A stretch of DNA of 64,000 nucleotides, from the NCBI GenBank assembly GCA_038212015.1, contig JBBQUY010000003.1, positions 4,237 to 68,236 of the forward strand, written 5' to 3'. Origin of the DNA: Gaiellales bacterium. Lineage in GTDB: Bacteria > Actinomycetota > Thermoleophilia > Gaiellales > SKUG01. The notes beneath the pieces are model-generated. The model did not search any database, was not told the DNA's origin, and was given only the letters and a program-made list of their open reading frames with translations. Made by a program: the position numbers and the translations under genes. Positions 2,118 to 51,932 of the stretch are shown one piece after another; positions within the stretch are counted from its first letter, which is position 1, and the number at the start of each line of letters is the position of its first letter.

Positions 2118-3047
2118 CTAGAAATCATCGTAGTCCGGGTTGCCGTTGGAGCTCGAGTTGCCGCCACCGTAGTCGTAGCTCGGCGGGTCGTACGACGGTG
2201 GGTCGTAGCTCGGCGGGTCGTACGACGGCGGGTCGTAGCTCGGCGGGTCGTACGACGGTGGGTCGTACGAAGACGGCGGCGGGTTGTAGCTGCCGCCTCC
2301 ATCGTCGCCGCGGCTCGTGCCGCCGCTGCCCGTGCTCGGGTAGCTCGGCGAGTAGTCGTAGTCGTCACCGCGGCTCGTCGAACCACCGCTCGGAATCGGG
2401 TACCACGGGTCGGGGTACGACGTCGGGTAGTCAGGGTAGTACCGGTCGTAGTTGTGTCCCGGGTAGTACGGCTCGTAGTGGCCGTGGGTCCGGTAGTAGT
2501 CGTCGTAATGGCTGCCGTGGCCATAGCTGTGCCCGCGGCCGTACTCGTAGCCCCGCGTGTTCTTCAGCGGACCCTCGTCGAACACCGCCCACTTGCCCTT
2601 GGTGTCCTGCTCGATCGAGTACTCGCGACCGACCATCTTGCCGGCGAACTCGCCAGCCTTGGCGCGAGTCGGCAGGCCGGACGCGACCGCAATCTTCGTC
2701 TTGGGTGGAAGCAGCTCGGCCCCGATGACGCTCGCTGCGCCAGCACCGATCAGTCCGCCACCGATCATGAGCGGTGACGCAAGCAGGCGTGACTCGGCAG
2801 CGCCGGGTGGGCGGCGGCTCAGCAGCGAGATGCCCAGCAGCGCCGCACCGCCGAGCGCCATCAGGCCACCCGGAATCTGAAGCCCGAGCTTGAGGCCCTT
2901 CCGCTCCAGCTCGACCGGTCCAGCCGGATACTGAGTCGCGAAAGCGATCTCCTCAGCGGTCGGCTCCGTCTTCGTTGCCTCCTCCGCCGCGCGGTTGGCA
3001 TAGACGACCGGCAGGTTCGTGTACGGCCCGACGTTTCCAGTGCTCAT
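2118..3047 (-). CDS. orphan membrane protein with Gly-rich TM hairpin and Tyr/Pro-rich tail with tandem PPSYD repeats
   Basis: ATG 3047 preceded by GGGAG; two hydrophobic Gly-rich segments; (PPSYD)x6. Confidence 0.75.
   Translation of the reverse strand: MSTGNVGPYTNLPVVYANRAAEEATKTEPTAEEIAFATQYPAGPVELERKGLKLGLQIPGGLMALGGAALLGISLLSRRPPGAAESRLLASPLMIGGGLIGAGAASVIGAELLPPKTKIAVASGLPTRAKAGEFAGKMVGREYSIEQDTKGKWAVFDEGPLKNTRGYEYGRGHSYGHGSHYDDYYRTHGHYEPYYPGHNYDRYYPDYPTSYPDPWYPIPSGGSTSRGDDYDYSPSYPSTGSGGTSRGDDGGGSYNPPPSSYDPPSYDPPSYDPPSYDPPSYDPPSYDPPSYDYGGGNSSSNGNPDYDDF
2172..2261 (-). repeat. coding tandem repeat, 30-bp unit x3 encoding (PPSYD)6
   Basis: Alternating 15-mers gtcgtagctcggcgg / gtcgtacgacggYgg on the plus strand. 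Confidence 0.9.
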
Positions 3048-3131
3048 GCGAGTGCTCCCGTCCCAAGGTCTCCCGGAGGGCCTCGGTGCGCGTCCCGGCG
3101 CACGTATTCGAGGCAGTCCTGAGTTGCCGGG

Positions 3132-3159
3132 ATATCGGGGCGGCAGACGATCATGTTGC
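3132..3159 (-). promoter_or_regulatory. sigma-28-like promoter
   Basis: GCAA-N16-CCCGATAT upstream of 2118-3047. Confidence 0.55.
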
Positions 3160-3306
3160 AGTCGAAGCGACTGCAGCACGAAGAGCTGCGGCCGGCACGA
3201 GGGAGTCGTGTCGGCCGCAGCGGGGGGAGGTCGTGCCGCTTCAAGGGGAAGGGGGAGGCGGCACGGAGGGGTTCCGACGCGGGAAACGCCGGAATGTGTC
3301 AGCGGG

Positions 3307-4305
3307 TCATGCCGCGGGCGGGTTCACCGGCTCCTTCGAGCCACCGTCGGCGCGACCGGCCACGAGCGTGTCGAGCAGCGTGTCGAGCAGGTCGACCGCC
3401 TTCTGCGTGTCGCGAGCTGCGCCGGGAACGTCGACGCCGTTGAAGCGTCCGTCAGGGCTCGGCTTCTTCGCGAGCTGCCAGTTGGCGTCCTCGAGCGATG
3501 CGTCCGCAGCGCGCAGCGTCGAGACGACGTCCGCGGGGGTGGACTGCATCTGGCGCTCAAGGCGCTCCTGCGCCGCCATGTTCGTCTTGAAGGCCTTGAT
3601 GCGCACGGCCTTGGAGCTCTCGTCACCCTTGTCGGTGGGGGAGACGGTGCTGATGATGCGCGCCGCCTCGCTGGCCAGGCGCAGGCCCTCGGTGACGTCC
3701 TCGACGAGCGTGCGGCTGCTGACCGGCGGCTTTGGATCGACGGGAGGCTTGGGTTCGACCGGCGGGCGAGGATCGACGGGCGGCTTCGGGTCGATCGGCG
3801 GCTTGGGCCGCACTGCCTGCACGTCGCGGATCACGCCGTCGACGAGCGCCCAGCTGCCGCCGACGATGGCTTCGACGCCGGAGTTGGCGTCGAGCTTGAT
3901 GCTGCCCGTGCGGGGCTGGTCGGCTCGACCGTACTCGTTGGTGCGGTACTTGAAGAAGCCGAACTCCGGCTTGTCGGCGCGGCCGAGCACCTCGATCTGT
4001 GCGCGGTCGGCACCGAACGAGTCCTCGCGGACGAAGCGCTTCGTCCAGACCGGCTGCATGAGCTCGTGCGCGGAGAACGTGTCGCCCTGACGGGTGACGG
4101 CGAACGCGCCGCCCTGCTGCTGCGACAGGCCGGCGGCCCCGCTCAGTGCGTCGTCGAGCGACGTGAAGCCGGTGCCGGCCTGCGAGCCGAGGTAGAGCGG
4201 CTCGTCACGCTTGAAGCGGATCTCGAGCTCGCCGACCTTCTGGCCAGCGCCAGGCAGGTTGGTGGTGACGGTACGGACTGCGGCGGAGGAGAGGGAGGCA
4301 ATCAT
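3307..4305 (-). CDS. orphan two-domain protein (unknown alpha/beta domain, PKPPVD linker, helical domain)
   Basis: High GC3 ORF; C-terminal domain is closely similar to that of 19724-20563 (LEDANWQLAKKPSPDGRFNGVD identical). Confidence 0.85.
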   Translation of the reverse strand: MIASLSSAAVRTVTTNLPGAGQKVGELEIRFKRDEPLYLGSQAGTGFTSLDDALSGAAGLSQQQGGAFAVTRQGDTFSAHELMQPVWTKRFVREDSFGADRAQIEVLGRADKPEFGFFKYRTNEYGRADQPRTGSIKLDANSGVEAIVGGSWALVDGVIRDVQAVRPKPPIDPKPPVDPRPPVEPKPPVDPKPPVSSRTLVEDVTEGLRLASEAARIISTVSPTDKGDESSKAVRIKAFKTNMAAQERLERQMQSTPADVVSTLRAADASLEDANWQLAKKPSPDGRFNGVDVPGAARDTQKAVDLLDTLLDTLVAGRADGGSKEPVNPPAA

Positions 4306-4412
4306 GCCGCCAATGGTCCCCTGTGACGGTGCGGCTCTGCAGTACGACGGCCGAACGGCGGCCCGCGCGGGCCGCGCCGGTGGCCCGCTGCGACGGTGTA
4401 TCGCCGGACGCG

Positions 4413-4443
4413 TGCTACGAATGTGCTACACAGATGCTACGAT
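4413..4443 (+). promoter_or_regulatory. TA operon promoter/operator: TGCTAC x3 at 11-bp spacing, the last forming an extended -10 (TGcTACGAT)
   Basis: TGCTAC at 4413, 4424 and 4435; ATG 6 nt after TACGAT. Confidence 0.6.
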
Positions 4444-4449
4444 GAACTC

Positions 4450-4716
4450 ATGGAGCCGACCAGCATCCCTCAGCGCGAGCTGCGCAATGACAGTTCCCGA
4501 ATCCTGCGGGAGGTGCAGGAGGGCAAGGAGTTCGTGATCACGGTTCGTGGCAAGCCGGTGGCGCGGATCGTGCCTGAGCGACCTGCGCATCGGGGACCGC
4601 GCACGCTCGTTCCCCGGGACGAGGCCTTGCCCATCATCATGCGCGCTCGTGCTGCGTTTGCCGGGATGACGATGCGTGATCTTCGGGATCCCGACGAGAA
4701 CGAGCCGCGGTACTGA
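4450..4716 (+). CDS. Phd/YefM-family antitoxin (VapB-type)
   Basis: IPQRELRNDSSRILREVQEGKEFVITVRGKPVARIVP Phd motif; directly upstream of a PIN toxin. Confidence 0.9.
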   Translation: MEPTSIPQRELRNDSSRILREVQEGKEFVITVRGKPVARIVPERPAHRGPRTLVPRDEALPIIMRARAAFAGMTMRDLRDPDENEPRY

Positions 4717-4717
4717 C

Positions 4718-5098
4718 ATGGCCTGGCTCTACGACACCTCCGTGATCGTCGCGATGGAAACCGGTGAATCGATGGACGAGTTTCCCATGGGTGACGTTGC
4801 GGTCTCGGTCATGACGATCGGCGAGCTGGAGCTCGGGCTCCATCGTTCCGCAGCCCAGGATCTATCGCTGCGCATCGAGACCATCGCCGACGTGGAGCAC
4901 TCATGGAACCCGTTGCCGGTCGATCTGCGCGTGATTCGGCGCTACGCGACGCTGGTGGCAGATTGCCGGCGACGTGGCGTGCGCGCCGGCGTTGCGGACG
5001 GCATCATCGCGGCGACCGCGTCAGTACATGGCTACGGCGTGGTCACGCGGGATCGGGACTTCACGCGATTCGAAGGCATCGAGGTCGTCCTCGTCTGA
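4718..5098 (+). CDS. vapC: PIN-domain toxin (VapC family)
   Basis: LYDTSVIV, SVMTIGEL, DGIIAATA, VVTRDRDF PIN motifs. Confidence 0.9.
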   Translation: MAWLYDTSVIVAMETGESMDEFPMGDVAVSVMTIGELELGLHRSAAQDLSLRIETIADVEHSWNPLPVDLRVIRRYATLVADCRRRGVRAGVADGIIAATASVHGYGVVTRDRDFTRFEGIEVVLV

Positions 5099-5104
5099 CG
5101 CTGG

Positions 5105-7183
<2,079 letters not shown>

Positions 7184-7312
7184 GGCGAGGAGGCAGTCTA
7201 TCGGGGTTGACGAGGTTCACCCGGCAGCCACCCGTAGCCCTCACACGGCCACTCGCTGGCCGTCAGTGATACGCGCTCGGCCAATTTCCCGACATCACAG
7301 GCAGGAGGACCT

Positions 7313-11226: not shown

Positions 11227-11275
11227 GAGGTGAAGCAATCCACTATCCCAGAGGGACAGTAGATGACCACACCTG
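11227..11275. repeat. 49-bp palindromic repeat family A, copy 1 (contains the ATG of the AbiEi-DUF559 gene)
   Basis: GAGGTGAAGCAATCCACTATCCCAGAGGGACAGTAGATGACCACACCTG; 41/49 identical to the reverse complement of 12847-12895. Confidence 0.85.
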
Positions 11276-12174
11276 CCAGTCGAGACGCCCGAATCGCTGC
11301 GATTGCGCACAGGCAGCACGGACTGATCACGACGGCGCAGCTGCGCGAGTGTGGTCTGAACGACTCCTCGATCTGCAAGCGCGTCCAGTCCGGCCGACTG
11401 CACCGTCTGCACCGTGGCGTGTACGCGGTCGGCCATGGGTCCGTCTCGCGCGACGCAACATGGACGGCCGCCGTACTGGCTGCGGGCGGTGACGCCGCGT
11501 TGAGTCATGTGGCAGCGGCGGCACACTGGCGGATCTGGCGACGGGGCGGTGCCGTCGAGACGACGCTGGTCGCGTCCCGACGCGCTCGGGGGATCGTCGG
11601 CGTGCGAGTCATCATGACGCGCACGCTCCATCGTCGGGACGTGCGCGTGCGCTTCGACATTCGCGTCACGAGCGTCGAGCGAACGATCGTCGACCTGGGC
11701 TCGATCCTGTCGCCGTGGCAGCTTGCCAACGTCATCCACGAGGCCGAGTTCCGTAATCGCCTGTCCCTGCGCGAGCTGGACCGCGTGCTGGTTCGCAATC
11801 GGGGGCGTGGTGCGGTGACGACGGTACGGCGCGCACTCGAGATTCGCTCGAGAGGAAGCTGGGGAACGCTCAGCGACCTTGAGGACGCGTTCCTGGCGAA
11901 GGCACACGGCCGCGGCCTCGATCCGCTCGTCAACTGTGCAGTCGACGTACTGGAAGGAACGGTCCGTCCGGACTTCTGCCGGCCGGAAGCCATGATCGCG
12001 ATCGAGGTGGACGGCTCACCGCACGGACGGGTCCGAACGAAGCGCGAGGACCGGGGTCGGGCAGCACAGCTCCGAGAAGCGGGATATGTGGTCATTCGGT
12101 GTGGTGCTGACGACATGGATGCATGTCTCGACGAGGTCGAGCGGCTGATGCGTGAGGCCGGCGTGCTCGTCTAA
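11263..12174 (+). CDS. AbiEi-family wHTH plus DUF559 (Vsr-like PD-(D/E)XK) domain protein
   Basis: IAHRQHGLITTAQL, LHRLHRGVYAVG, SHVAAA, VTSVERTIVDL, RPDF..IAIEVDGSPH..DR.R..LREAGYVVIR. Confidence 0.85.
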   Translation: MTTPASRDARIAAIAHRQHGLITTAQLRECGLNDSSICKRVQSGRLHRLHRGVYAVGHGSVSRDATWTAAVLAAGGDAALSHVAAAAHWRIWRRGGAVETTLVASRRARGIVGVRVIMTRTLHRRDVRVRFDIRVTSVERTIVDLGSILSPWQLANVIHEAEFRNRLSLRELDRVLVRNRGRGAVTTVRRALEIRSRGSWGTLSDLEDAFLAKAHGRGLDPLVNCAVDVLEGTVRPDFCRPEAMIAIEVDGSPHGRVRTKREDRGRAAQLREAGYVVIRCGADDMDACLDEVERLMREAGVLV

Positions 12175-13503: not shown

Positions 13504-13530
13504 TGATCGGGGCGAATTACCTACGTTTGC
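13504..13530 (-). promoter_or_regulatory. sigma-28-like promoter
   Basis: GCAA-N15-CCCGATCA. Confidence 0.55.
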
Positions 13531-17379: not shown

Positions 17380-18147
17380 ATGTGTGGTCGTTATCAGCTC
17401 GCGCTTCCGGGGCGCACCCTCGCCAACCTGCTGGACGCGCAGCTCGCAGCCGTCGGCGTGCAGCCGACGTGGAACGCGGCGCCGACGCAGGTGCTGCCGG
17501 TGCTGGGGCTCGCGGCGGATGGCCGGCGTGTGCTGCAGGGGGCGGAGTGGGGCCTCGTGCCCGGCTGGGCGCGGCTCCCCGGACGCGACCTGCGCCCGCT
17601 CATCAACGCGCGGTCGGAGACCGTCGTCGAGAAACCCGCGTTTCGATCGGCCGTGCGCACGGGGCGCATCCTCGTGCCGGCAACCGCTTTCTACGAATGG
17701 CACGGCCCCAAGGGTGCAAAGGTGCCGCACCTGATCCGCGTGCGGGGCGCAGGAATCGACGAGACGACCGGCACTCGACTGGACCACGACGCCGCGCCGG
17801 GCGAGGTCGTCGAACCGTTCCTGATTGCAGGGTTCGCGGAGGAGTGGACGACCCCCGACAACGTTCCCGAGCTGACCTTCACGATCCTCACGACCACGCC
17901 CAACGAGCTGTGTGAGCCGATCCACGATCGCATGCCCGCGATCCTGGAAGGTGACGATGCGCAGGCGTGGCTGGAGGCGCCGCCGGAGGACACCCAGCTC
18001 GTGCTCGACCTGCTGGGACCGTTCCCGGCCGAGCGCATGGAGGCCTGGCCGGTGTCTCGAGCCGTCAACGACGCGCGCCACGACGGCGCCGGGCTGTCGG
18101 TGCCGGCCGGCGCGGTCGACGCGGTCGACGACGGTCAGCTGTTCTGA
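17380..18147 (+). CDS. SOS response-associated peptidase (SRAP/YedK/HMCES)
   Basis: N-terminal MCGRY, INARSETV, FYEW, IHDRMPAIL. Confidence 0.93.
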   Translation: MCGRYQLALPGRTLANLLDAQLAAVGVQPTWNAAPTQVLPVLGLAADGRRVLQGAEWGLVPGWARLPGRDLRPLINARSETVVEKPAFRSAVRTGRILVPATAFYEWHGPKGAKVPHLIRVRGAGIDETTGTRLDHDAAPGEVVEPFLIAGFAEEWTTPDNVPELTFTILTTTPNELCEPIHDRMPAILEGDDAQAWLEAPPEDTQLVLDLLGPFPAERMEAWPVSRAVNDARHDGAGLSVPAGAVDAVDDGQLF

Positions 18148-19415
18148 TGTCGGTCGTCAGCGCGCAGGCGGTAGTCGACGACGACCGGATGGTGATCGCT
18201 CGAGTCCACGCCGTCGACCACGTGCGTTCCGACGCGCGCCCTGGCGACGTCGAATTGGTCTGAGGCGTACACGCGATCGATCGGCGTGCGCGGGGTCGCG
18301 CTGCCGAACGTACGGCGTGCGGGGTCGTCGAGCGCCATGCCGGAGGCTGTGAAGGCGTCACGCAGCCCGGCGGAACGGAATGCGGCGGCTTCCTTGTCGC
18401 CGTGAGCCGTGTTCGATTTCACGTTGAAATCCCCGCCCACGATGGTCGGGCCATCCCACGCCGCGAGCAGCCCCGCGAGCGGATCGATCTGGCGACGCGG
18501 ATGATCGACTCCATCAGATGCCCAGCTCCAGTGGCCCGAAAGCACGCGGACGTCGGTGCCGCCAGGGGTGGTGATCATCACGTCCGCGGTCGAGCGTGGT
18601 CGATACATCGGCGAGTTGAAGGGATGCCACTCGCGATCGGCGATCTTGTCGGCGAGCAGGCCTGCGACGGCGTCTGCAGCCCCCGCGATGCGGCGCGCTG
18701 GGCCACCGCCGAATGCATCAGGACTGACGATGCCGCGTGCATCCGCGATGGTCACACCGTTGAACGTCAGCACGGCCGTTCCGTTGCGACGTCCGGTGAC
18801 CGAGTGGATCGACGGCGTGTGCACCGCGCCGTCGGCATCGAGGCGGTCGGCAAGGGTTCCAAGGACGTCACGGAAGCCGGACTGGACGGCGTGGTCGTCG
18901 ACTTCCTGCAGGAGCACGACGTCCGGTCGTTCGCGTTCGATCGCACGGGCCACGCGCTCCAGGTCGGCCGCGCCACCGACCAGATCGCCGCCGGGGCCGA
19001 GCGAGCCATGGATGTTGAAGCTCATGACCCGCAGCGACTCGTCCGCGCGAACGTCGCCGCTGGCGACCGATGCTCCTGCTGCTGCGGCGGTCGAGACCGA
19101 ATCGGTTCCGCGGCGTCGCAGCACGTCGAGCAGCACGCCGCCGCCCACGAGCAGCGCGGCGCCACCCATCGCGCCGAGTACACCCATGCCGATGCGTCCA
19201 GCGATGCCGCGACCTGCGCGGGCAGCGAGCAACGCAGTCGTGCCGGCCCCGATTCCAGCGCCGGCGGCGAGTACGCCCCAGCGCTCGTTGAACCGGGTGC
19301 CGATGCGGTCGATCGCCGACGGCTCATGGGGCGCAACACCGTCGAGCGCGGGCAGGGCAACGTCGCGCGTGGGCACGCGCTTGAACACTGCTGCATGGTC
19401 GACTGTGAGGCCCAC
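18135..19415 (-). CDS. endonuclease/exonuclease/phosphatase (EEP) protein with N-terminal Gly-rich TM hairpin
   Basis: LRVMSFNIH, DVVLLQEVD, IVGGDFN, IDRVY, SDHHPV. Confidence 0.88.
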   Translation of the reverse strand: MGLTVDHAAVFKRVPTRDVALPALDGVAPHEPSAIDRIGTRFNERWGVLAAGAGIGAGTTALLAARAGRGIAGRIGMGVLGAMGGAALLVGGGVLLDVLRRRGTDSVSTAAAAGASVASGDVRADESLRVMSFNIHGSLGPGGDLVGGAADLERVARAIERERPDVVLLQEVDDHAVQSGFRDVLGTLADRLDADGAVHTPSIHSVTGRRNGTAVLTFNGVTIADARGIVSPDAFGGGPARRIAGAADAVAGLLADKIADREWHPFNSPMYRPRSTADVMITTPGGTDVRVLSGHWSWASDGVDHPRRQIDPLAGLLAAWDGPTIVGGDFNVKSNTAHGDKEAAAFRSAGLRDAFTASGMALDDPARRTFGSATPRTPIDRVYASDQFDVARARVGTHVVDGVDSSDHHPVVVDYRLRADDRHQNS

Positions 19416-19478: not shown

Positions 19479-19489
19479 CGACCCAGCAC

Positions 19490-19583
19490 AGCAAAAGCCG
19501 CCGACGGGGGCTGATCCGTCGGCGGCTTTCGAAGAGGTCACGGGGGTAACCGGCGGTCGCTGCCGTGGCTGGCGGGCAACCAC
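19490..19583 (-). ncRNA. putative small RNA (about 90 nt)
   Basis: Bounded by TCAG-N16-TCCGATCA and a strong terminator; no convincing ORF between them. Confidence 0.45.
19492..19530 (-). terminator. intrinsic terminator
   Basis: AAAGCCGCCGACGG-loop-CCGTCGGCGGCTTTT on the minus strand. Confidence 0.85.
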
Positions 19584-19588
19584 CCTCA

Positions 19589-19616
19589 TGATCGGAACAT
19601 CACCGTGGGGTCCTGA
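19589..19616 (-). promoter_or_regulatory. sigma-28-like promoter
   Basis: TCAG-N16-TCCGATCA. Confidence 0.55.
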
Positions 19617-21523: not shown

Positions 21524-21594
21524 TTCCGGGACAGGGATTCGAACCCCAACTCCCCGCTCCAGAGGCGGATGTCCTACCGTTAGACGATCCCGGA
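21524..21594 (-). tRNA. tRNA-Gln (anticodon CTG)
   Basis: TCCGGGA-TC-GTCTAACGGTAGGAC-A-TCCGC-CT-CTG-GA-GCGGG..GGTTCGAATCC..TCCCGGA-A. Confidence 0.93.
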
Positions 21595-22934: not shown

Positions 22935-23115
22935 TCGTCTCACCTCCCCCCGGAAGTGCCTCGCCCCCGGAGCGCGCCGCGAAATCTCCCCTTCGCAACG
23001 TGCTCCCTGCTACGTCTCGTCCATCACACGCGAGTCCCCCTGCGCATGGTGCACAGGACCAAGGTACGACGAACGGCGGGTCCGGTCAACGGAATTCCGC
23101 AACCGTTCCGCCCGA

Positions 23116-23143
23116 ATATCGCATGGGGGTCGTCCACGGTTGC
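23116..23143 (-). promoter_or_regulatory. sigma-28-like promoter
   Basis: GCAA-N16-TGCGATAT, same geometry as 3132-3159. Confidence 0.55.
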
Positions 23144-23206
23144 GAATCAAGCCGACGAAAATGCGTCCATTTGTTGGCCGCACCCCGGCCAGCACGCGGC
23201 CGCTTT

Positions 23207-33886: not shown

Positions 33887-35218
33887 TCACGCCATCGACT
33901 CGAGGATGCGCCGCACCACCGGCCTGACGACGTCGGAGTTGACGAGGCGCATCTTCCAGTCGTCCATGTCGTCGGCCGTGACGCGGTGCGAGCGCGTCTC
34001 GTCGTGGCGCAGCATCGCCTCGACCTGGTCGAGCAGCTTCGGGTCGTTGCTGAGCACGTTGACCTCGTGATCCGTGTCGAGCGCGCGATAGGTGAGGTTC
34101 GTCGAACCGACGGAGGCCCAGTTCTCCGTCAGCACGATCTTCTCGTGTGACATCTGCGGCTGTTCGAGCACGCGAACCCCACGCGCGGCACCAGCACCGA
34201 GGTCGTCGTAATACGACCGCGACAGCTGCTGGAACATCGGGAACGCGGATTCGTCACCGTTCACCCACAGCCGCGTGTCGACTCCGCGTTCGATCGCCTC
34301 GCGGCTGGCCGCGGCGATGCGCGGCGACCCGAAGTACGGCGTCTGCATCCACAGCCGGCTCTCCGCGGACTCCGCGAGCGCATACGCCGCGCGGGTCGCG
34401 TCGCGCACGGGGCCGTCGTTGGCCACGATGCGGTAGCCCACGTCCACCGGCGTCTGGCCGGCGCGATCGGCGGCGTCGAGCATCTGCCGCTGGAGCGCGC
34501 TGACCTGTCCGCCGTTGTCGACCCAGCGTCCGACGAAGTCGGCGTGCGCCTGCGCGACGATCTCGCGCCCGGTGAGACGGACCATCACGTCGTGCCACGT
34601 CGTGCCGGAGCCGAAGCCCATCCCGCCCACGTATGCGACGTCGTCGTCGATGACGAACAGCTTGCGATGCTCGATCGGGGGATTGAACGGCATGAGCGGG
34701 CTCGCGTGCCGCACCACTCGGATGCCGTCGCGCTCGAGCTCGTCGTAGAAGCGCGTCTGCGGGAAATACGGCAGCAGCGACGTGCCCTGTCGGTCGACGA
34801 GCACGCTCACCTCGATCGGCGCGCGACCATCGGTCGGTTTCGCGCGTGCCCGCAGCGCCTCGAGGATCTGTCGGCCCTCGGCGGTGGGTTTGAGGATGAA
34901 TTCCGCGACCTCGATCGACTGCTTCGCGTTCGCTATGTCCTGCAGCATCCGTGGGACCGCGACGTCCTTGTCGACGAGCAGCTCGCCCGCGCCGACGACG
35001 AGCACGTTCTCGGGCAGGGCGGCATGGCCGTGTACGGCGTTGGCAAGCCTGCCTGCCTCCACCGGTCCACGAATCGCCCGAAGCGCTTCTGCGCCGCCCA
35101 TCCGCATGTCCCACATCTCCCGCGTCGCTGCAGGCTGCGCTGTCCAGGCGCGCCTGCTCCTGTACGTCGGGCGTGGTCGCGTGGCCGTTGCAACGTGATC
35201 GATCACTGGTCCGATCAT
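33887..35218 (-). CDS. phospholipase D / cardiolipin synthase-like protein lacking TM and Sec signal
   Basis: HRKLFVIDD..YVGGMG, WHDVMV, TPYF, HEKIVLTE..VGSTN. Confidence 0.85.
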   Translation of the reverse strand: MIGPVIDHVATATRPRPTYRSRRAWTAQPAATREMWDMRMGGAEALRAIRGPVEAGRLANAVHGHAALPENVLVVGAGELLVDKDVAVPRMLQDIANAKQSIEVAEFILKPTAEGRQILEALRARAKPTDGRAPIEVSVLVDRQGTSLLPYFPQTRFYDELERDGIRVVRHASPLMPFNPPIEHRKLFVIDDDVAYVGGMGFGSGTTWHDVMVRLTGREIVAQAHADFVGRWVDNGGQVSALQRQMLDAADRAGQTPVDVGYRIVANDGPVRDATRAAYALAESAESRLWMQTPYFGSPRIAAASREAIERGVDTRLWVNGDESAFPMFQQLSRSYYDDLGAGAARGVRVLEQPQMSHEKIVLTENWASVGSTNLTYRALDTDHEVNVLSNDPKLLDQVEAMLRHDETRSHRVTADDMDDWKMRLVNSDVVRPVVRRILESMA

Positions 35219-35223
35219 TTGGC

Positions 35224-36767: not shown

Positions 36768-38312
36768 ATGGCATTGAAGACCGACAGCTTCCGCATCACC
36801 GGTACCGACCTCCCGATCGAGGAGGTCGAACGCGTCGCGATGGGCGGCGTCAACATCGAGCTGACCGATTCTGCTCGCACGCGGATCGCCGCTGCGCGCG
36901 CCGTCGTCGATTGCGCCGAAAGCGACGAGCTCTCCACGTACGGACTCAACACCGGCGTCGGCCGCTTCGTCGACACGCACATCCCCGCCGGCATGACCGC
37001 CGAACTGCAGAAGCGCGTGCTGCGATCACACGCCGCCGGCGTCGGCGCCCCCTACCCGGACGAAGTCGTGCGCGCCGCGCACCTGCTGCGCATCAACACG
37101 CTCGCGCTCGGCTACTCGGGCGTGCGCGTCGAACTCGTCGAACGCATGGTCGCGATGCTCGACGCGGGCGTGCTGCCGTTCGTACCCGCGCGTGGCAGCG
37201 TCGGCGCGTCTGGTGACCTCGCACCGCTCTCGCACCTGTGCCTGCCGCTCGTGGGGGAGGGCAAGGCATACGTCGACGGCGAGCTGATGCCCGCCGCCGA
37301 CGCGCTCGCCAGGACCGGTCTCGAACCGATCGAGCTTGCGTCGAAGGAAGGGCTGTCACTCATCAACGGCACGCAGTTCATGACCGCGATGGGGATCGTC
37401 TTCGGGCTGCGCGCACGTCGGCTCATGCGCATGGCCGACCTGGTCGCCGCCCTCAGCGTCGAGGCGCTGCGCGGTTCGGACCAGCCGTTCCTGCCGCAGA
37501 TCCACGAGCTGCGCCCGCACGCCGGGCAGAAGACGTCTGCCGCGAACATGTACGCGGCGATGCAGGGGTCGACGATCTCCGATTCGCATCGCTGGTGCGA
37601 CCGCGTGCAGGACGCGTACTCGCTGCGCTGTGCACCACAGGTTCACGGCGCGTCGCGCGACGCGCTCGAGCACGCACTGCGTACCTTCCAGATCGAAGCA
37701 CAGGCCGTCACCGACAATCCGCTCGTGTTCCCGGAAGAAGACCTGCTGCGCTCCAACGGCAACTTCCATGGACAGCCGTGCGCGATCTCGCTCGACCTGA
37801 TGGCGATCGCGGTGGCGGAGATCGCCAACATCTCCGAGCGCCGCGTCGAGCGCCTCGTCAATCCCACGATGAGCGGGCTGCCCGCGTTCCTGGTGGCCGA
37901 GGGTGGACTCAACTCCGGCTACATGATCGCCCAGTACACCGCCGCTGCGCTCGTGTCGGAGAACAAGGTCTACACGCATCCTGCGAGCGTCGATTCGATC
38001 CCCACGAGCGCCGGGCAGGAAGACCACGTGAGCATGGGCAACCACGCCGGGCTCAAGCTGCTGCCGGTGCTCGAGAACGCCGAGCGCGTGCTCGCGATCG
38101 AGCTGCTGTGTGCCACGCAGGGCGTCGACTTTCTTGCGCCGCGTCGCCCGGGCGCCGGCACTCGCGCGCTCCACGCCGCCGTTCGCGAGCGCGTGCCCTA
38201 CCTCAAGGAAGACCGCATCCTCAACGACGAGATCGAGCTCATCACCTCGCTCGTCACCGATCCCGCGTTCATCGCCGAGGTCGAACAGGCAGCTGGCCTG
38301 ACGCTGGCCTGA
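36768..38312 (+). CDS. hutH: histidine ammonia-lyase
   Basis: YGLNTG, RSHAAG, GSVGASGDLAPL (MIO), KEGLSLINGT, QDAYSLRC, QEDHVSM. Confidence 0.97.
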   Translation: MALKTDSFRITGTDLPIEEVERVAMGGVNIELTDSARTRIAAARAVVDCAESDELSTYGLNTGVGRFVDTHIPAGMTAELQKRVLRSHAAGVGAPYPDEVVRAAHLLRINTLALGYSGVRVELVERMVAMLDAGVLPFVPARGSVGASGDLAPLSHLCLPLVGEGKAYVDGELMPAADALARTGLEPIELASKEGLSLINGTQFMTAMGIVFGLRARRLMRMADLVAALSVEALRGSDQPFLPQIHELRPHAGQKTSAANMYAAMQGSTISDSHRWCDRVQDAYSLRCAPQVHGASRDALEHALRTFQIEAQAVTDNPLVFPEEDLLRSNGNFHGQPCAISLDLMAIAVAEIANISERRVERLVNPTMSGLPAFLVAEGGLNSGYMIAQYTAAALVSENKVYTHPASVDSIPTSAGQEDHVSMGNHAGLKLLPVLENAERVLAIELLCATQGVDFLAPRRPGAGTRALHAAVRERVPYLKEDRILNDEIELITSLVTDPAFIAEVEQAAGLTLA

Positions 38313-38346
38313 CGCTGGCCTGACGCTGGCCTGACGCTCGTCTGAC
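38292..38346 (+). repeat. 11-bp tandem repeat GCTGGCCTGAC x4 plus one degenerate copy across the hutH stop
   Basis: Direct reading of the sequence. Confidence 0.9.
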
Positions 38347-38388
38347 GGTCGATTCGTCGTCGAACATCAGTCACCTCCGGGCGGCGAC

Positions 38389-38415
38389 TCAGGGCGTCTC
38401 GTTTGCCGCCGATAC
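38389..38415 (+). promoter_or_regulatory. sigma-28-like promoter
   Basis: TCAG-N15-GCCGATAC. Confidence 0.65.
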
Positions 38416-38469
38416 TGCGTCGGGATGGGACGAATACCCGCATCTGGACGTGGTCACTGCTTCGCACGT

Positions 38470-45732: not shown

Positions 45733-45736
45733 ACAC

Positions 45737-45823: not shown

Positions 45824-45928
45824 CTGGTTGCGATGACTGCGACCAGATCGCACGCAGCGCAACCACATGTCGCTGAGCCGACTGGGTGGTTACACGGACT
45901 GCGATTTCATCGCAGTCAGAACGACCAC
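45824..45928. repeat. doublet of 43-bp palindromes (family B), 62-bp period
   Basis: TGGTT..GACTGCGA..TCGCA..ACCAC units at 45824 and 45886. Confidence 0.8.
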
Positions 45929-46021
45929 ATGCGGGCGCACGGGTCAGGGAGCCGAGGCCAGGAGGTTGACTCGCCATGCACGCCTGCCGCCCGTCGCCGC
46001 TCGCGGTGCTACCCTTTCGGC

Positions 46022-46429: not shown

Positions 46430-46431
46430 CC

Positions 46432-47124: not shown

Positions 47125-47146
47125 GCGCGCGGGGTAGGCTTTCGCC

Positions 47147-48439: not shown

Positions 48440-48489
48440 CCTGAGCGTCTCTCGCACGCGCGGATGCCAGCACGCATAGGATGCTCCGC

Positions 48490-50322: not shown

Positions 50323-50333
50323 TCCGCGTCAGT

Positions 50334-50438
50334 GTGGTTGTCCTGACTGCGACCAGATCGCAGTCGACGCGACCAGACGCGTGGAAACGCGCCACGTGGT
50401 TGTCCGGACTGCGACCGGATCGCAGTGGTCGTAACCAC
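50334..50438. repeat. doublet of 43-bp palindromes (family B), 62-bp period
   Basis: GTGGTTGTCCTGACTGCGACCAGATCGCAGTC.. at 50334 and GTGGTTGTCCGGACTGCGACCGGATCGCAGT..AACCAC at 50396. Confidence 0.85.
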
Positions 50439-50468
50439 CCACACGCGCCTTTGGGGCATCAACGAATA

Positions 50469-50497
50469 GGGGCGCCGATCGTGAGATCGACGCCCCG
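50469..50497. terminator. hairpin between convergent genes
   Basis: GGGGCGCCGATC-gtga-GATCGACGCCCC. Confidence 0.55.
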
Positions 50498-50535
50498 GGT
50501 GCCTTGCGGCAATGTGCGTGGGATGCGGTGGTTGA

Positions 50536-51726
50536 TCAGCCGTGCTGCTGCGGCTGGCGCTGCAGCTGCACGACGTTCTGCTGCTGGTCTGCCTTCGGCA
50601 TGACCGGCATCATCTGCGTCAGCTGCGAGATGAGCGGCTCGAGGCTCTCGAGCACCTGGCGACGGCGCTCCTCGAGGCGACGGATCTGGTCCTTGAGACG
50701 ATCCTGCTCGCGCATTGCTTCCTGCGCGCGCACGGTCGCGAGGCGGCGCTGCTCCGCGAGCACCTGCTCGCCCTCACGGCGCGCGGTCTCGACGATCGCG
50801 CGCGCCTCCGTCTGTGCCTGCTGGAGCACCGCCGTGGCGTCGCCGCGCAGCGTGCCGGCTTCTTCGTTGGCACGAATCAGGATCTGCTCACCCGTCTGCT
50901 GGGCTTCGCTGATGATCTCCTCGACCTCGCCGAGCAGCACGCGCGCCTGCGCCTGTCCATGCTCACGGATGCGCTCGGCCTCGTCCTCGGCTCGATCGAT
51001 GATCTCCTCAGAGCGCGCGTGCGCCGTGCGCAGCTCGAGCTCCATGCGGTGCTGGACGTTGGAGGCCTCGTCCTCGATGAGCTGCACGAGCCGACTCACG
51101 TCGATGCCGATCGACGCGGCGGCGTTCGCGCCTCCGCTGCCGGGCACGAACGATGCCGTCGACACGGGAGCGGGCTGGGTGGGGGCGAGCTCCGCGGCGG
51201 GCGCGGGCTGGGGCGTCGGGGCCGCGGGCGTCGGCTCGAGCGTGACGGAGCCCGTGGCCTGCGGGGTCGTGGGCTCGGCCGCGGCGGTGGGCACGGAGAC
51301 CGGCTTGAGCGCGGCATCGAGGCGGGCCTCGATGTCGGCGTCGGTCTCGGGTGCGGGGGTGGTGGGCGTGGGCTGCTGCTGCACGGTGGCCTCCGATGCG
51401 GGCGTCGTGGTCGAGGTGGGCGTCGGGACCGACGTGGTGGTGACGGCGGGGGCTCCGGTGGCGGTGGCACCGCTCATTGCCGCGAGGTCGTTGGCACGCG
51501 CGATCACGGCGCGCTGCATGTCGAGCTTGGCGCGATCGGGCTCGTCAGCGACGGCTCGCGCGCCGACCAGCTCATCCATGCGACGAGCCAGGTCATCGAC
51601 GGTCGCGACCGCCTGGGCGGTCGCGTGGGACGTCGTCGTGTCATCGGCATCGTCGGAGCGCTTGCCACGGCGGAACAGGCCGCGGCGAGTGCCCTCGCTA
51701 CCGGTGGCTTCCATGGATCCCTTCAC
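50536..51726 (-). CDS. coiled-coil protein (DivIVA/FilP-like C-terminal half) with Pro/Thr-rich linker
   Basis: GAGGAG SD before GTG 51726; EEIIDRAEDEAERIRE-type repeats. Confidence 0.7.
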   Translation of the reverse strand: MKGSMEATGSEGTRRGLFRRGKRSDDADDTTTSHATAQAVATVDDLARRMDELVGARAVADEPDRAKLDMQRAVIARANDLAAMSGATATGAPAVTTTSVPTPTSTTTPASEATVQQQPTPTTPAPETDADIEARLDAALKPVSVPTAAAEPTTPQATGSVTLEPTPAAPTPQPAPAAELAPTQPAPVSTASFVPGSGGANAAASIGIDVSRLVQLIEDEASNVQHRMELELRTAHARSEEIIDRAEDEAERIREHGQAQARVLLGEVEEIISEAQQTGEQILIRANEEAGTLRGDATAVLQQAQTEARAIVETARREGEQVLAEQRRLATVRAQEAMREQDRLKDQIRRLEERRRQVLESLEPLISQLTQMMPVMPKADQQQNVVQLQRQPQQHG

Positions 51727-51904
51727 GAACTTCTCCTCGCTGCGGTGCGGTGCGTCGGCAGGCCTGTGACGTGCACGGGACGAGTGGGCATCCGAGCACG
51801 TGCGCAGGTCGTGGATTGCGCGACGGTAGCGAGGTTGTACCCCTGCCGACACGGCTTTGAACATGGAGAACCGACTTGCCATTCCTGCCGTATGCCAAGG
51901 CGCG

Positions 51905-51932
51905 TCAAGCGCTCCGGAAGTCGTGCCGATAG
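51905..51932 (+). promoter_or_regulatory. near-consensus sigma-28 (FliA/WhiG) promoter
   Basis: TCAAG-N15-GCCGATAG upstream of 51990. Confidence 0.7.

Follow-up and report, generated by a model that had tools for sequence, protein, structure and literature searches.

Two predicted alternative-sigma promoter classes, one of them family-specific, in a flagellated Gaiellales bacterium

Eight intergenic motifs in a 64,000-nucleotide stretch of a Gaiellales genome (the whole stretch is called the window below) had been described as a single sigma-28 regulon of orphan, effector-like genes. We conclude instead, at a probability of about 80%, that they are two separate alternative-sigma promoter classes merged with chance matches. 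Class 1 has the sigma-28-type form TCAAG-N15(14-16)-GCCGAT(A/G) and class 2 the form TG(C/A)AAC-N17-CGA(T/C)A..C.GG; since both contain a CAA-N18-CGAT skeleton, a single loose pattern caught both. Class 2 is confined to one uncultured soil actinobacterial family within Gaiellales. We infer from sequence that both motifs are promoters, and likewise which sigma factor would read each.

Results

The eight motifs taken as one set

As in the preliminary description, all eight motif strings (sites 1 to 8, numbered by position) are present at the coordinates and strands given there, and each lies upstream of, and is oriented toward, a gene or a structured RNA. They do not form an enriched set. The loose pattern that joins them, [TG]CA[AGC]-N15-17-NNCGA[TC]NN, has 258 matches on both strands of the window, versus 199 ± 14 in first-order Markov simulations of it, and is equally frequent between and inside genes: 27 of the 258 matches (10.5%) lie mostly between genes, and 10.0% of the window is intergenic. 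The eight sites are therefore a selection from 27 equivalent intergenic matches.

The sites were scored with position weight matrices (PWMs) learned genome-wide, one per class. On the sigma-28 matrix five of the eight score between -1.4 and 5.9 bits. What is left of the proposed regulon is one strong, one probable and one weak site; two others are strong members of the other class, and three are unsupported. A scan of 57 window genes bears out the statement that the window holds no flagellar or export genes. Intergenic labels and gene calls come from a simple in-house codon-score caller, and the assembly is a metagenome-assembled genome (MAG) in 176 contigs, with a completeness of 86.7% and a contamination of 4.15%. 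For both motifs we determined directly how far they are enriched, how they are spaced and oriented, how they are conserved across genomes, which genes follow them and how they are distributed phyletically.

Class 1 across the genome

The form T(C/A)AAG-N15-(G/T)CCGAT stands upstream of three flagellin genes, and the class 1 motif precedes all four flagellin genes of the genome. The pattern T[AC]AA-N17-CCGAT has 91 matches, 65 of them intergenic in a genome that is 89% coding, while neighbouring spacings give 1-16 intergenic matches. With the PWM we found 202 intergenic sites at 14 bits or more (19-34 with wrong spacers), 132 at 16 bits (4-14) and 91 at 18 bits (1-6). A gene start in the same direction follows within 400 nt at 180 of 200 sites, versus 61% of off-spacer matches. 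At 31 sites the start codon comes 0-10 nt past the motif, and many class 1 transcripts look leaderless.

Targets were scanned as the first gene after 120 of the 122 sites of at least 16 bits. These 120 genes include four flagellins, FliD, FliM, FliL, FliJ and two rod proteins, together with FapA; four N_methyl pilins, PilM, two T2SSE ATPases, Flp, TadE and RcpC; three GGDEF+HD-GYP proteins, three HD_5 proteins and an HDOD protein; and M23 and NlpC/P60 hydrolases. The expectation that sigma-28 targets would be rich in orphans was not borne out, 45 of the 120 being unannotated versus 22 of the 57 window genes (Fisher p = 1.0). A strict class 1 pattern has 26-52 matches per genome in the organism's family and 1-19 in sister families.

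Class 1 sites in the window

In the window, site 8 and a site at 54002 would belong to class 1, as probably would site 7 and perhaps site 4.

51905..51932, forward strand: site 8, predicted class 1 promoter; -35 TCAAG at 51905-51909, -10 GCCGATAG at 51925-51932
51990..54089, forward strand: site 8 target gene, 699 aa, GTG start preceded by the RBS GAAGGAG
54002..54028, forward strand: predicted class 1 promoter absent from the earlier list; TCAGG-N14-GCCGATAC, 19.1 bits
54344..55102, forward strand: lipoprotein-like gene downstream of the 54002 promoter, 252 aa, lipobox LVAAGC
38389..38415, forward strand: site 7, probable class 1 promoter; TCAGG-N14-GCCGATAC, 15.1 bits
38425..40593, forward strand: site 7 target, 722-aa surface protein with an Ig-like Big_5 domain, from ATG 38425
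19589..19616, reverse strand: site 4, weak class 1-like site; TCAGG-N15-TCCGATCA, 13.3 bits
19488..19585, reverse strand: candidate structured RNA (~95 nt), flanked by site 4 and the EEP nuclease gene (18135-19415)

Site 8 scores 22.7 bits on the class 1 matrix and its form matches that of three flagellin promoters of the same genome. Upstream of the orthologue in all six relatives the boxes are kept and the spacer is variable (20.3-22.7 bits). The target matches no Pfam or NCBIfam family and is present in 5/5 genomes of the genus and in 1/3 of the family's other genera. Its N-terminus has four Cys residues and its C-terminus is rich in Thr and Ala; it also has a long stretch rich in Pro and Ala and a single membrane segment. 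The 54002 promoter sits within the 3' end of this preceding gene; identical boxes with a different spacer occupy the equivalent position in the three relatives L219, L220 and L222 (17.9-19.1 bits). No family match was found for the lipoprotein-like gene.

At site 7 the ATG at 38425 comes 11 nt past the T of GCCGAT, as expected of a leaderless transcript. The closest relative (G003) has TCAGG-N14-GCCGATAG at this locus (14.9 bits), with the ATG 9 nt past that T; at the two other orthologous loci nothing exceeds 11 bits, so that the site is conserved in one of three. Site 4 lies at a score where most intergenic class 1 matches are due to chance, and although its boxes are kept and its spacer changed in G003, the entire region is ~83% identical. 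The structured RNA candidate comprises three hairpins, the third of them a terminator that is rich in GC and bears a U-run; its minimum free energy is -65.2 kcal/mol (z = -5.6; 0/200 shuffles equally stable). Its best Rfam match has E = 0.4, and a DNA match was found in one of eight family relatives.

Class 2 across the genome

GCAAC-N17-CGAT is intergenic in 37 of 98 matches, versus 3-9 intergenic matches at other spacings, and G[CT]AAC-N17-CGATA in 23 of 26. The PWM yields 171 intergenic sites at 16 bits (null 8-17) and 137 at 18 bits (null 1-4), and a co-oriented gene lies within 400 nt of 156 of 170 sites, versus 63% of the null. The two classes hardly overlap: five of 170 class 2 sites are also class 1 sites, and the target lists share two genes.

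Among the best 60 class 2 targets, 47 have no Pfam family, a share higher than that of class 1 targets (45/120, p = 2.6e-7) or window genes (22/57, p = 1.4e-5). Of the large sigma-28 regulon of non-flagellar orphans that had been proposed, the size and the mostly non-flagellar membership hold for the predicted class 1 regulon, but the orphans belong to class 2. Annotated targets include Lgt, LysM, a PLD/cardiolipin-synthase-like protein, solute-binding proteins and FabH. An N-terminal hydrophobic segment is present in 25% of class 2 targets versus 28% of genes genome-wide, and no recognisable flagellar gene was found among the 60 scanned.

A strict class 2 pattern has 19-45 matches per genome within the family versus 0-5 elsewhere, the level of a reversed-pattern control. 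By this measure class 2 occurs in 9/9 genomes of the family and in 0/22 from sister families, which carry class 1 without class 2.

Class 2 and rejected sites in the window

Class 2 in the window would consist of sites 1 and 5 and two divergent promoters at ~35190.

3127..3160, reverse strand: site 1, predicted class 2 promoter; TGCAAC-N17-CGATATCCCGG, 23.4 bits
2118..3047, reverse strand: site 1 target, 309 aa, membrane hairpin and Tyr/Asp/Pro-rich tail (SYDPP repeats)
23111..23144, reverse strand: site 5, predicted class 2 promoter; CGCAAC-N17-CGATATTCGGG, 19.3 bits
21945..22934, reverse strand: site 5 target, 329 aa, disordered N-terminal half and conserved C-terminal domain (alignment of 7)
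35189..35222, forward strand: predicted class 2 promoter absent from the earlier list, 20.4 bits
35224-36270: collagen-repeat gene directly after the preceding promoter
35159..35192, reverse strand: predicted class 2 promoter absent from the earlier list, 22.7 bits, divergent from 35189..35222
33887-35116: PLD-domain gene (PLDc_2) downstream of 35159..35192

On the class 1 matrix sites 1 and 5 score 5.9 and -1.4 bits. A counterpart of site 1 (20.5 bits) occupies the equivalent position upstream of its one clear orthologue, in G003 (1/1); the target has no family match. Class 2 sites of 17.9-24.0 bits with unrelated spacers stand upstream of five of six orthologues of the site 5 gene. The -35 boxes of the two divergent promoters share the palindrome GTTGCAAC.

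The effector-like genes named earlier as sigma-28 targets fare differently: the membrane-hairpin protein and the toxin-like RNase follow predicted class 2 promoters instead, and the EEP nuclease has just an 11.8-bit class 2 match, with the terminator between site 4 and the gene.

Three sites were rejected.

13504..13530, reverse strand: site 2; class 1 3.1 bits, class 2 below 11 bits
19452..19478, reverse strand: site 3; class 1 1.7 bits, class 2 11.8 bits
36306..36334, forward strand: site 6; class 1 1.0 bit, class 2 below 11 bits

Sites 2 and 6 belong to neither class. Site 3 has no real support, its 11.8 bits falling below the class 2 score range that exceeds the off-spacer null.

The toxin-like target of site 5

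The C-terminal domain of the site 5 target is predicted to have a BECR-type RNase-toxin fold. The best structural match of the modelled domain (pLDDT 76.4) is to the CdiA-CT toxin 7m5f_C (Z 9.3, rmsd 3.7 Å, 104/119 residues), and those ranking next, at Z 5-6, are without exception RNase toxins. The predicted fold of the C-terminal 130 residues thus resembles CdiA-CT of Serratia marcescens BWH57, although the protein has no Pfam match even at E <= 1. The toxin-like domain is C-terminal, as in polymorphic toxins. Unlike the BECR toxins (CdiA-CT, EndoU_bacteria, colicin D, RelE/BrnT), a comparison set that concerns this gene only, the protein has no known N-terminal trafficking domain, and no immunity gene was identified for it. 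For the attack or secretion programme suggested earlier, the analysis yielded no supporting evidence.

Sigma genes and flagellar gene sets

As anticipated, the genome encodes a FliA/WhiG sigma, on contig C24 (TIGR02479, 282.6 bits versus a cut-off of 189.6), as well as flagellar export genes and flagellins. The genome, a Gaiellales MAG, is that of a flagellated organism, whose sigma-28 is therefore not an orphan regulator. The genome holds 22 sigma genes, at least 13 of them ECF-type, and no clear autoregulation by the class 2 motif was seen among them. No match to the FlgM family was found in the genome, nor an RsiG-type motif near whiG. One sigma gene lies in the window and had been missed.

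57472-58712: SigB/F/G-family sigma and RsbW-like partner

There are two export-gate gene sets (FliP, FlhB, FlhA). The second flagellar-type set, family-specific within the order, is headed by a divergent sigma-28-like sigma of 245 aa (C71:6308-7045), directly upstream of FlgB- and FlgC-like genes. Regions 2 and 4 of this C71 sigma match the FliA/WhiG model with 121 bits, under the cut-off, and the protein is 33% identical to WhiG. It is present in 9/9 family genomes (68-96% identity) and in 0/22 genomes of four sister families (E <= 1e-20); in G004 its orthologue and the second FlhA are on one contig.

Discussion

That all eight sites form one sigma-28 regulon of orphan, effector-like genes is barely credible. 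In its favour, sigma-28 is encoded in the genome, its predicted regulon is large and includes site 8, and the CGAT core is common to both classes. Against this, five of the eight sites score poorly on the sigma-28 matrix, the degenerate pattern is not enriched, the -35 boxes differ between classes whose targets are almost disjoint, and sister families have class 1 without class 2. It is also very improbable that one or both motifs are transcription-factor binding sites or repeat remnants. Class 2 has an extra conserved C.GG 4-7 nt past CGAT, an uncommon feature in a -10 box, but both motifs are two-block with a sharp spacing optimum, and ~90% of sites are co-oriented with the next gene versus ~62% of controls. 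Class 1, moreover, has a start-codon peak 0-10 nt downstream and is identical to the sigma-28 consensus of the textbooks. Neither among copies nor among orthologous loci are the spacers related, which argues against repeats.

Within the two-class reading, class 2 might be a diverged sigma-28 regulon read by the C71 sigma, a tentative proposal at somewhat under even odds. This sigma and the strict class 2 pattern have the same phyletic distribution, the sigma resembles FliA/WhiG in regions 2 and 4 and keeps company with FlgB-, FlgC- and FlhA-type genes, and the skeleton common to both matrices favours a sigma-28-like reader. However, the joint occurrence of sigma and pattern counts as one event in one lineage and not as an independent replicate; an ECF sigma at C2:87011 is also family-restricted (5 genomes tested), and the phyletic profiling covered six of the 22 sigma genes. 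All four flagellin genes are under class 1 and none under class 2, the scanned class 2 targets lack a recognisable flagellar gene, and the motif was not found upstream of the C71 sigma or its seven orthologues. The motif is equally compatible with ECF promoters, and we would give a little less than half a chance to a lineage-specific envelope/stress regulon of an ordinary ECF sigma. The -35 ending in AAC, the N17 spacer and the -10 CGA(T/C) are an ECF signature, at least 13 ECF-type genes are possible readers, and the annotated targets listed above fit. A 15.5-bit class 2-like site also precedes an operon on C67 in which an ECF sigma is encoded together with a small gene and a 520-aa protein, but this ECF belongs to a paralogue set and has a clear orthologue in just one relative. 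No ECF gene is preceded by a strong class 2 site, and among the targets neither signal peptides nor membrane segments are overrepresented.

Dual flagellar systems, polar and lateral, with the sigma-28 paralogues FliA and LafS are known in Vibrio parahaemolyticus. The present genome likewise has two export-gate sets, one encoded with a second, divergent sigma-28-like sigma; in contrast to V. parahaemolyticus, this is a monoderm actinobacterium whose second set is family-specific and whose flagellin genes all carry the class 1 motif.

Published WhiG/FliA motif queries are T(A/C)AA-N16-GCCGA and TAAA/GCCGATAA (PMC8325347; bioRxiv 10.64898/2026.01.14.699351). The Actinomycetota motif of these sources is the same as class 1, TCAA-N16-GCCGAT, and the regulons share with class 1 flagellar genes, chemotaxis/motility, type IV pili, DGC/PDE enzymes, regulators and sigma factors. 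For WhiG of Rubrobacter radiotolerans 12 promoters were validated (Schumacher et al. 2021, PMC8325347), versus ~120-170 predicted class 1 units here. Unlike in the WhiG systems described there, no RsiG-type motif was seen beside whiG here, and flagella, type IV pili and Tad pili fall under one predicted regulon. The main text of the phylum-wide WhiG/FliA regulon prediction (Denis et al. 2026, bioRxiv 10.64898/2026.01.14.699351) has no mention of Thermoleophilia, Gaiellales, Conexibacter or Solirubrobacter; its supplementary tables may list such genomes.

Sigma-D of C. glutamicum recognises a -35 GTAAC(A/G) and a -10 GAT, with 11 confirmed sites (PMC6338062), and S. coelicolor sigma-E targets have xGxAAC-N17-CGTCT (PMC6767563). 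Class 2 resembles such promoters in its -35 ending in AAC, its spacer of ~17 nt and its -10 (C)GA(T), and its few annotated targets (Lgt, LysM, PLD, solute-binding proteins) are envelope-flavoured as in ECF regulons. It differs in preferring TG(C/A)AAC, in adding A..C.GG past CGAT, in its predicted size (~140-170 sites versus 11), in the ~78% of targets without a family, in its limitation to one Gaiellales family and in that no autoregulated sigma/anti-sigma pair was identified for it.

Class 1 would most likely be read by the single bona fide FliA/WhiG of the genome, on C24, and would drive ~120-170 transcription units. Their products range over late flagellar components, pili of the type IV and Tad kinds, enzymes of c-di-GMP metabolism, hydrolases of the cell wall, surface proteins and regulators. 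Because each matrix was learned from this one genome, absolute regulon sizes depend on the threshold. Class 2 would be an ECF-like promoter read by a sigma other than that of class 1, and would drive ~140-170 units across the genome, of which about three quarters lack annotation.

Two Predicted Promoter Classes in the Window

The preliminary description had singled out eight intergenic motifs (sites 1 to 8) and had read them as one sigma-28 regulon of orphan, effector-like genes scattered between housekeeping genes. All eight strings were found in the window as described. The pattern that unites them, [TG]CA[AGC]-N15-17-NNCGA[TC]NN, was not above chance, with 258 matches in the window and 199 ± 14 in first-order Markov simulations. 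Only 27 of the 258 matches (10.5%) were mostly intergenic, intergenic DNA being 10.0% of the window, and the eight sites are thus a hand-picked third of 27 equivalent intergenic matches. The pattern is too loose to be informative and does no more than chance.

As judged from position weight matrices learned genome-wide, the window nevertheless appears to contain members of two genuine, large alternative-sigma regulons. One would be a greatly expanded, otherwise familiar WhiG/FliA programme, whose predicted promoters have the form TCAAG-N15-GCCGAT(A/G) (class 1); the other, with predicted promoters of the form TG(C/A)AAC-N17-CGA(T/C)A..C.GG (class 2), would be a family-specific, orphan-rich class. 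The observation behind the preliminary description is therefore partly confirmed and its interpretation partly supported. Both matrices were trained and tested on one genome, the controls being wrong spacers, orientation, conservation elsewhere and strict-string counts; gene calls and the label "intergenic" are those of our own caller.

Sites in the window and their scores on the class 1 and class 2 matrices
3132-3159 (-), site 1, ahead of the membrane-hairpin gene 2118-3047 (-): class 1, 5.9 bits; class 2 site, 23.4 bits
13504-13530 (-), site 2: class 1, 3.1 bits; class 2, below 11 bits
19452-19478 (-), site 3: class 1, 1.7 bits; class 2, 11.8 bits, not significant
19589-19616 (-), site 4: class 1, 13.3 bits, borderline
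23116-23143 (-), site 5, ahead of the RNase-like gene 21945-22934 (-): class 1, -1.4 bits; class 2 site, 19.3 bits
35159-35192 (-), not among the eight, ahead of a PLD-domain gene: class 2 site, 22.7 bits
35189-35222 (+), not among the eight, ahead of a collagen-repeat gene: class 2 site, 20.4 bits
36306-36334 (+), site 6: class 1, 1.0 bits; class 2, below 11 bits
38389-38415 (+), site 7: class 1, 15.1 bits, borderline
51905-51932 (+), site 8, TCAAG-N15-GCCGATAG: class 1 site, 22.7 bits
54002-54028 (+), not among the eight, TCAGG-N14-GCCGATAC: class 1 site, 19.1 bits, conserved in three relatives

The eight sites do not hold together as one sigma-28 regulon, sites 1, 2, 3, 5 and 6 scoring from -1.4 to 5.9 bits on the class 1 matrix. 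Site 8 and the site at 54002-54028 have the features of sigma-28 promoters, and sites 4 and 7 are borderline. Nor do the proposed effectors lie behind such promoters: the membrane-hairpin and RNase-like genes have class 2 sites, and the EEP nuclease gene at 18135-19415 (-) has a site of neither class.

The Class 1 Programme

The sigma-28 consensus has a -35 element T(A/C)AA and a -10 element GCCGA(TAA), written TAAA-N15-GCCGATAA or, equivalently, T(A/C)AA-N16-GCCGA (as quoted in Denis 2026, 10.64898/2026.01.14.699351). Upstream of three flagellin genes in the genome we found T(C/A)AAG-N15-(G/T)CCGAT, the same form as site 8. The string T[AC]AA-N17-CCGAT has 91 matches genome-wide, 65 of them intergenic in a genome that is 89% coding; at spacings of 14, 15, 16, 18 and 20 the intergenic matches number 2, 1, 16, 8 and 7. 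With a two-block matrix trained iteratively on intergenic matches, 202 intergenic sites scored at least 14 bits (19-34 with a wrong spacer), 132 at least 16 bits (4-14) and 91 at least 18 bits (1-6). Subtracting the wrong-spacer counts gives an estimate of about 120-170 true sites genome-wide, of which a few may be counted twice, as one site with identical flanks lies both at a contig end (C44:28853-28878) and at the start of another contig (C81:70-95), probably an assembly overlap. The sites are strongly oriented, 180 of 200 facing a gene start within 400 nt compared with 61% of off-spacer matches. In 31 genes the start codon follows the motif by 0-10 nt, as would be expected of leaderless mRNAs.

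The strict string TCAAG-N15-GCCGAT has 52 matches in this genome, 26-47 in each of eight family relatives, all of which are incomplete metagenome-assembled genomes, and 1-19 in each of the 22 sister-family genomes compared, which come from four families. With the spacer set to N18 as a control, each of the 31 genomes gave 0-7 matches.

To survey the targets, we scanned with Pfam the first gene behind the site for 120 of the 122 distinct targets at 16 bits or more.

Pfam families among the class 1 targets
Flagellar: 4 flagellins, FliD, FliM, FliL, FliJ, two FlgEFG-type rod proteins, FapA
Pili: 4 N_methyl pilins, PilM, two T2SSE ATPases, Flp, TadE, RcpC
c-di-GMP and signalling: three GGDEF+HD-GYP proteins, three further HD_5 proteins, an HDOD protein, adenylate/guanylate cyclase
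Cell wall: M23 and NlpC/P60 hydrolases
Surface or secreted: two subtilases, five DUF5122 propellers, three Laminin_G_3, two fn3, three giant Ig/PA14 proteins, an RTX protein
Other: four TerB, three DUF2510, response regulators, a group-2-like sigma, a ribosome hibernation factor

Class 1 thus reads, from its predicted targets, as a motility, pilus, c-di-GMP and surface programme. N-terminal hydrophobic segments are enriched, being present in 52% of the targets compared with 28% genome-wide. Orphans are not enriched: 45 of the 120 targets lack a family, compared with 22 of 57 window genes (p = 1.0). Class 1 promoters also precede each of three giant ORFs (C17:32809-50310, C15:30428-47797 and C18:16643-23386), which are ~2,200-5,800 aa long and encode Ig-like, PA14 or propeller domains.

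The theme is already known for actinobacterial WhiG. In Schumacher 2021 (PMC8325347), WhiG of Rubrobacter radiotolerans has 12 validated promoters, at type IV pilus and DGC/PDE genes, and Denis 2026 makes phylum-wide WhiG predictions using T(A/C)AA-N16-GCCGA; what is new here is the scale and the lineage. Neither regulon was found described for this lineage in the literature on Gaiellales/Thermoleophilia flagella and sigma factors or on the TGCAAC/CGAT motif, the Denis supplements being outside the scope of that search.

Class 1 Sites in the Window

Site 8 lies 58 nt upstream of a GTG with a good RBS. The encoded protein of 699 aa is Cys-rich at its N-terminus, contains a stretch rich in Pro and Ala and has one membrane span; it belongs to no family. 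In 6 of 6 relatives the site is found upstream of the orthologue, with TCAAGC and GCCGAT(A/G) kept and an unrelated spacer. The same cross-relative comparison brought out the site at 54002-54028, ahead of a lipoprotein-like gene. Site 7 shares the TCAGG-N14 form of the latter, and its ATG lies 11 nt after the T of GCCGAT; both boxes are kept in the closest relative, with the ATG at 9 nt, while two further orthologous loci score below 11 bits. We regard site 7 as a probable class 1 promoter. Between hutH and this site, directly after hutH, a tandem repeat CTGGCCTGACG is present in about four copies (~38310-38360, +).

The score of site 4 falls in the range where chance matches predominate. It is followed by a strongly structured element of ~95 nt (19488-19585, -; z = -5.6) with C-rich loops, which ends in an intrinsic terminator. 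Rfam gave no match to this RNA better than E = 0.4, and 6C RNA was rejected; in the scan of the whole window nothing but 2 tRNAs reached the gathering score. The region of site 4 and the RNA as a whole is conserved in only one of eight relatives (G003). If real, site 4 would drive a small RNA rather than the EEP nuclease gene.

The window also encodes an RsbW-like anti-sigma factor (131 aa) overlapping the start of a SigB/SigF/SigG-family sigma of 282 aa (57472-58712, +; TIGR02980, 280 bits, cut-off 234), which shows 83-87% identity to proteins of two other family genera and 45% to that of one sister-family genome. A PhdYefM antitoxin and PIN-domain toxin pair is found at 4450-5098 (+) and an AbiEi_4/DUF559 protein at 11263-12174 (+).

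Sigma-28 and Flagellar Genes of the Genome

The assembly (3.49 Mb in 176 contigs, 69% G+C) is 86.7% complete with 4.15% contamination. A sigma-28 gene and a flagellar-type export apparatus, on which the preliminary description depended, are both present. A single FliA/WhiG sigma exceeds the model cut-off (C24:22892-23683; TIGR02479, 282.6 bits, cut-off 189.6). It shares 85% identity with a sigma of an "uncultured Gaiellales bacterium" and 60-75% with those of other Gaiellales and Solirubrobacterales metagenome-assembled genomes, and these identities indicate that the host is an uncultured member of the Gaiellales (class Thermoleophilia, Actinomycetota). AspS, at about 50% identity to proteins of many phyla, gave no information on the placement. 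The flagellar genes include two FlhA, two FliP, two FlhB, one FliF and five flagellin-family matches; none lies in the window, as the preliminary description had stated.

We also looked for the regulators of WhiG. In the WhiG2-RsiG c-di-GMP switch the anti-sigma RsiG is usually encoded near whiG. Its motif, E(X)3S(X)2R(X)3Q(X)3D, had two exact matches in a six-frame search, none of them near whiG or in a plausible small gene; only the exact motif was sought, in a genome with ~13% missing, and a diverged motif could escape. The whiG neighbours match no Pfam family. For the anti-sigma FlgM (PF04316), a short and divergent protein, a search of this 86.7%-complete genome at E ≤ 0.01 found nothing.

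Several further genes were observed. The gene of a group-2-like sigma with regions 1.2 to 4 (C20:14416-15447) is preceded by a class 1 promoter of 22.1 bits, and a sigma cascade below WhiG is therefore suggested. In the first flagellar cluster of this genome, the place behind flhA and three further genes, at which fliA is often found, is occupied by a 323-aa RpoD/RpoS-like sigma and not by a FliA-type one (C61:17828-18799). In two adjacent ORFs of 381 and 386 aa (C4:16270-17818) the similarity to FlhA is confined to its C-terminal cytoplasmic portion (FHIPEP positions ~458-655). Finally, a sigma at C67:11376-12059 passes the NCBIfam "sporulation sigma factor SigH" model (NF006148, 243.7 bits, cut-off 208) and is conserved in all five Gaiellales genomes tested at 62-72% identity; to our knowledge, a SigH-type sporulation sigma is unexpected outside Firmicutes.

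The Class 2 Motif and Its Targets

Because sites 1 and 5 both read GCAAC-N17-CGATAT, we tested this string genome-wide. Intergenic matches make up 37 of the 98 to GCAAC-N17-CGAT, compared with 3-9 at spacings of 12-16 and 19-22, and 23 of the 26 to G[CT]AAC-N17-CGATA. Refinement on 273 intergenic training sites, with a spacing optimum of 17, led to the class 2 motif. Intergenic sites number 171 from 16 bits upwards (8-17 with a wrong spacer) and 137 from 18 bits upwards (1-4). Co-oriented sites with a gene start within 400 nt number 156 of 170, compared with 63% in the null, and the start codon is mostly 20-60 nt away. The two classes are nearly disjoint, with 5 of 170 sites coinciding and two genes common to both target lists. 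Across three genera the class 2 boxes are kept and the spacers changed upstream of the one orthologue of the site 1 gene and of 5 of 6 orthologues of the site 5 gene.

At 35159-35222 two divergent class 2 promoters have a common palindromic -35 core, GTTGCAAC, so that one 8-bp element serves both strands.

In a Pfam scan (E ≤ 1e-5) of the 60 best of 128 targets scoring at least 18 bits, 47 had no Pfam family (p = 2.6e-7 against class 1 and p = 1.4e-5 against the window). The idea of a regulon made up of orphan genes dispersed between housekeeping genes therefore stands for class 2 and fails for sigma-28. Among the 13 targets with an annotation are Lgt, LysM, PLD, two solute-binding proteins, FabH, an alpha-amylase/maltokinase pair and a C39-like peptidase. 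The targets are spread over many contigs and are somewhat rich in small polar residues; no enrichment of signal peptides was found among them. They are mostly singletons: a paralogue within the target list exists for just 20 of 154, and we therefore rejected the explanation that class 2 is a gene-family artefact.

The site 5 gene, just downstream of which lies a tRNA gene (21524-21594), encodes a protein with a disordered N-terminal half and a C-terminal domain conserved in an alignment of seven seq­uences. The AlphaFold model built from these seven sequences has a mean pLDDT of 76.4, with a core above 90. In a wide VIA-align search its best structural match was the CdiA-CT toxin 7m5f_C (Z 9.3, rmsd 3.7 Å, 104 of 119 residues), followed about 3 units lower, at Z 5-6, by the RNase toxins CdiA-CT, YxiD, BrnT, colicin D and RelE/ParE. 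This search was clearer than Foldseek, which alone gave nothing for the domain at E ≤ 0.001 (E = 8.5e-3). By sequence the protein belongs to no Pfam family at E ≤ 1, PF14436 (EndoU_bacteria) included, and the EndoU_bacteria clusters of the Atlas, with a feature score of 0.86, are a weak lead. On the predicted model, the assignment of a BECR-type RNase-toxin fold to the C-terminal domain holds, as a claim at the level of the fold.

Candidate Sigmas for Class 2

In this genome the strict class 2 string has 45 matches, in eight family relatives 19-42 and in 22 sister-family genomes 0-5, the last being the level of the reversed-pattern control. A sigma-28-like paralogue of 245 aa (C71:6308-7045) is distributed identically: 9 of 9 family genomes have it, at 68-96% identity, compared with 0 of 22 others at E ≤ 1e-20. 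Its regions 2 and 4 match the FliA/WhiG model with 121 bits, below the cut-off, and it is 33% identical to WhiG. Its gene lies directly ahead of FlgB- and FlgC-like genes. Another FlhA, more divergent than the first (~750 bits, compared with ~860), is also found in the family: a second long FHIPEP match on a separate contig is present in at least 6 of 9 family genomes, while none of the 22 other genomes has two intact FlhA copies and 15 have none. In one relative (G004) the second FlhA and the orthologue of the C71 sigma lie on one contig. Three family-restricted traits thus occur together, namely a second set of flagellar-type genes, the sigma that goes with it and the class 2 motif; CAA-N18-CGAT is common to the class 1 and class 2 motifs. 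We put the probability that the C71 sigma reads class 2 at roughly 0.4. The co-occurrence amounts to one evolutionary event, however, and the phyletic profiling covered 6 of 22 sigma genes; an ECF sigma (C2:87011) is likewise family-restricted among five genomes tested, and the SigF-like sigma of the window is nearly so. Moreover, all flagellins lie behind class 1 and none behind class 2, and the C71 sigma and its orthologues have no class 2 site upstream at any of 8 loci. Autoregulation of this sigma was set aside, as these loci have no class 1 site either. What is conserved upstream of the gene in most of the 8 genomes (upstream of 7045 on C71) is an element TTGCC(A)-N18-TTCACT/TTATAT, which looks like a housekeeping-type promoter.

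The shape of the motif itself speaks for an ECF sigma instead. Class 2 has the textbook ECF form, with a -35 element ending in AAC, a -10 element CG(A/T)n and a spacer of 16-18. Its AAC and CGAT boxes resemble the GTAAC(A/G) and GAT of Corynebacterium glutamicum sigma-D (PMC6338062), and the sigma-E targets of Streptomyces coelicolor (PMC6767563) have a similar ECF shape. Reading by an ECF sigma is a tentative proposal that we rate somewhat short of an even chance. In the search for an autoregulated ECF sigma gene with an adjacent anti-sigma, a single class 2 site, of 15.5 bits, was found ahead of the C67:14570-17118 operon, and none of at least 16 bits lies within 1.5 kb of any sigma gene. 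Among individual candidates, the C67 ECF sigma was set aside as the sole class 2 sigma, having a clear orthologue in G002 only and being a member of a paralogue set. Two others were rejected as family-specific candidates: the ECF sigma at C77:574 was not found in either of two family genomes tested, and the SigH-like sigma was present in all five genomes tested.

If the C71 sigma does read class 2, a broader scenario can be drawn, which we consider unlikely: one uncultured Gaiellales family would have acquired a second flagellar-type type III export set whose own diverged sigma-28-like sigma drives the family-specific class 2 regulon (~140-170 promoters, mostly of unannotated genes without signal peptides, including at least one protein with a C-terminal RNase-toxin fold) as a programme of secretion or antagonism that a monoderm actinobacterium has derived from the flagellum. 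This comes close to what the preliminary description had guessed, with a different sigma and a different motif.

Significance

Actinobacteria of the class Thermoleophilia, above all the Gaiellales, abound in soil; hardly any have been cultured, and we know of no experimental genetics in them. Two sharply defined predicted promoter classes, covering ~300 transcription units, provide a map of co-regulated genes in an organism of this uncultured lineage. Class 1 widens the WhiG/FliA theme of motility, pili and c-di-GMP to about ten times the one validated actinobacterial unicellular case, and its predicted targets suggest a common switch for flagella, type IV pili and Tad pili. Class 2 unites well over 100 otherwise uninterpretable genes in one programme and so turns "hypothetical proteins" into a testable unit. 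By its predicted distribution, this programme arose in one family along with a new sigma-28-like sigma and a duplicate set of flagellar genes, and it may serve as a concrete case for the origin of a new sigma-promoter pair and its regulon.
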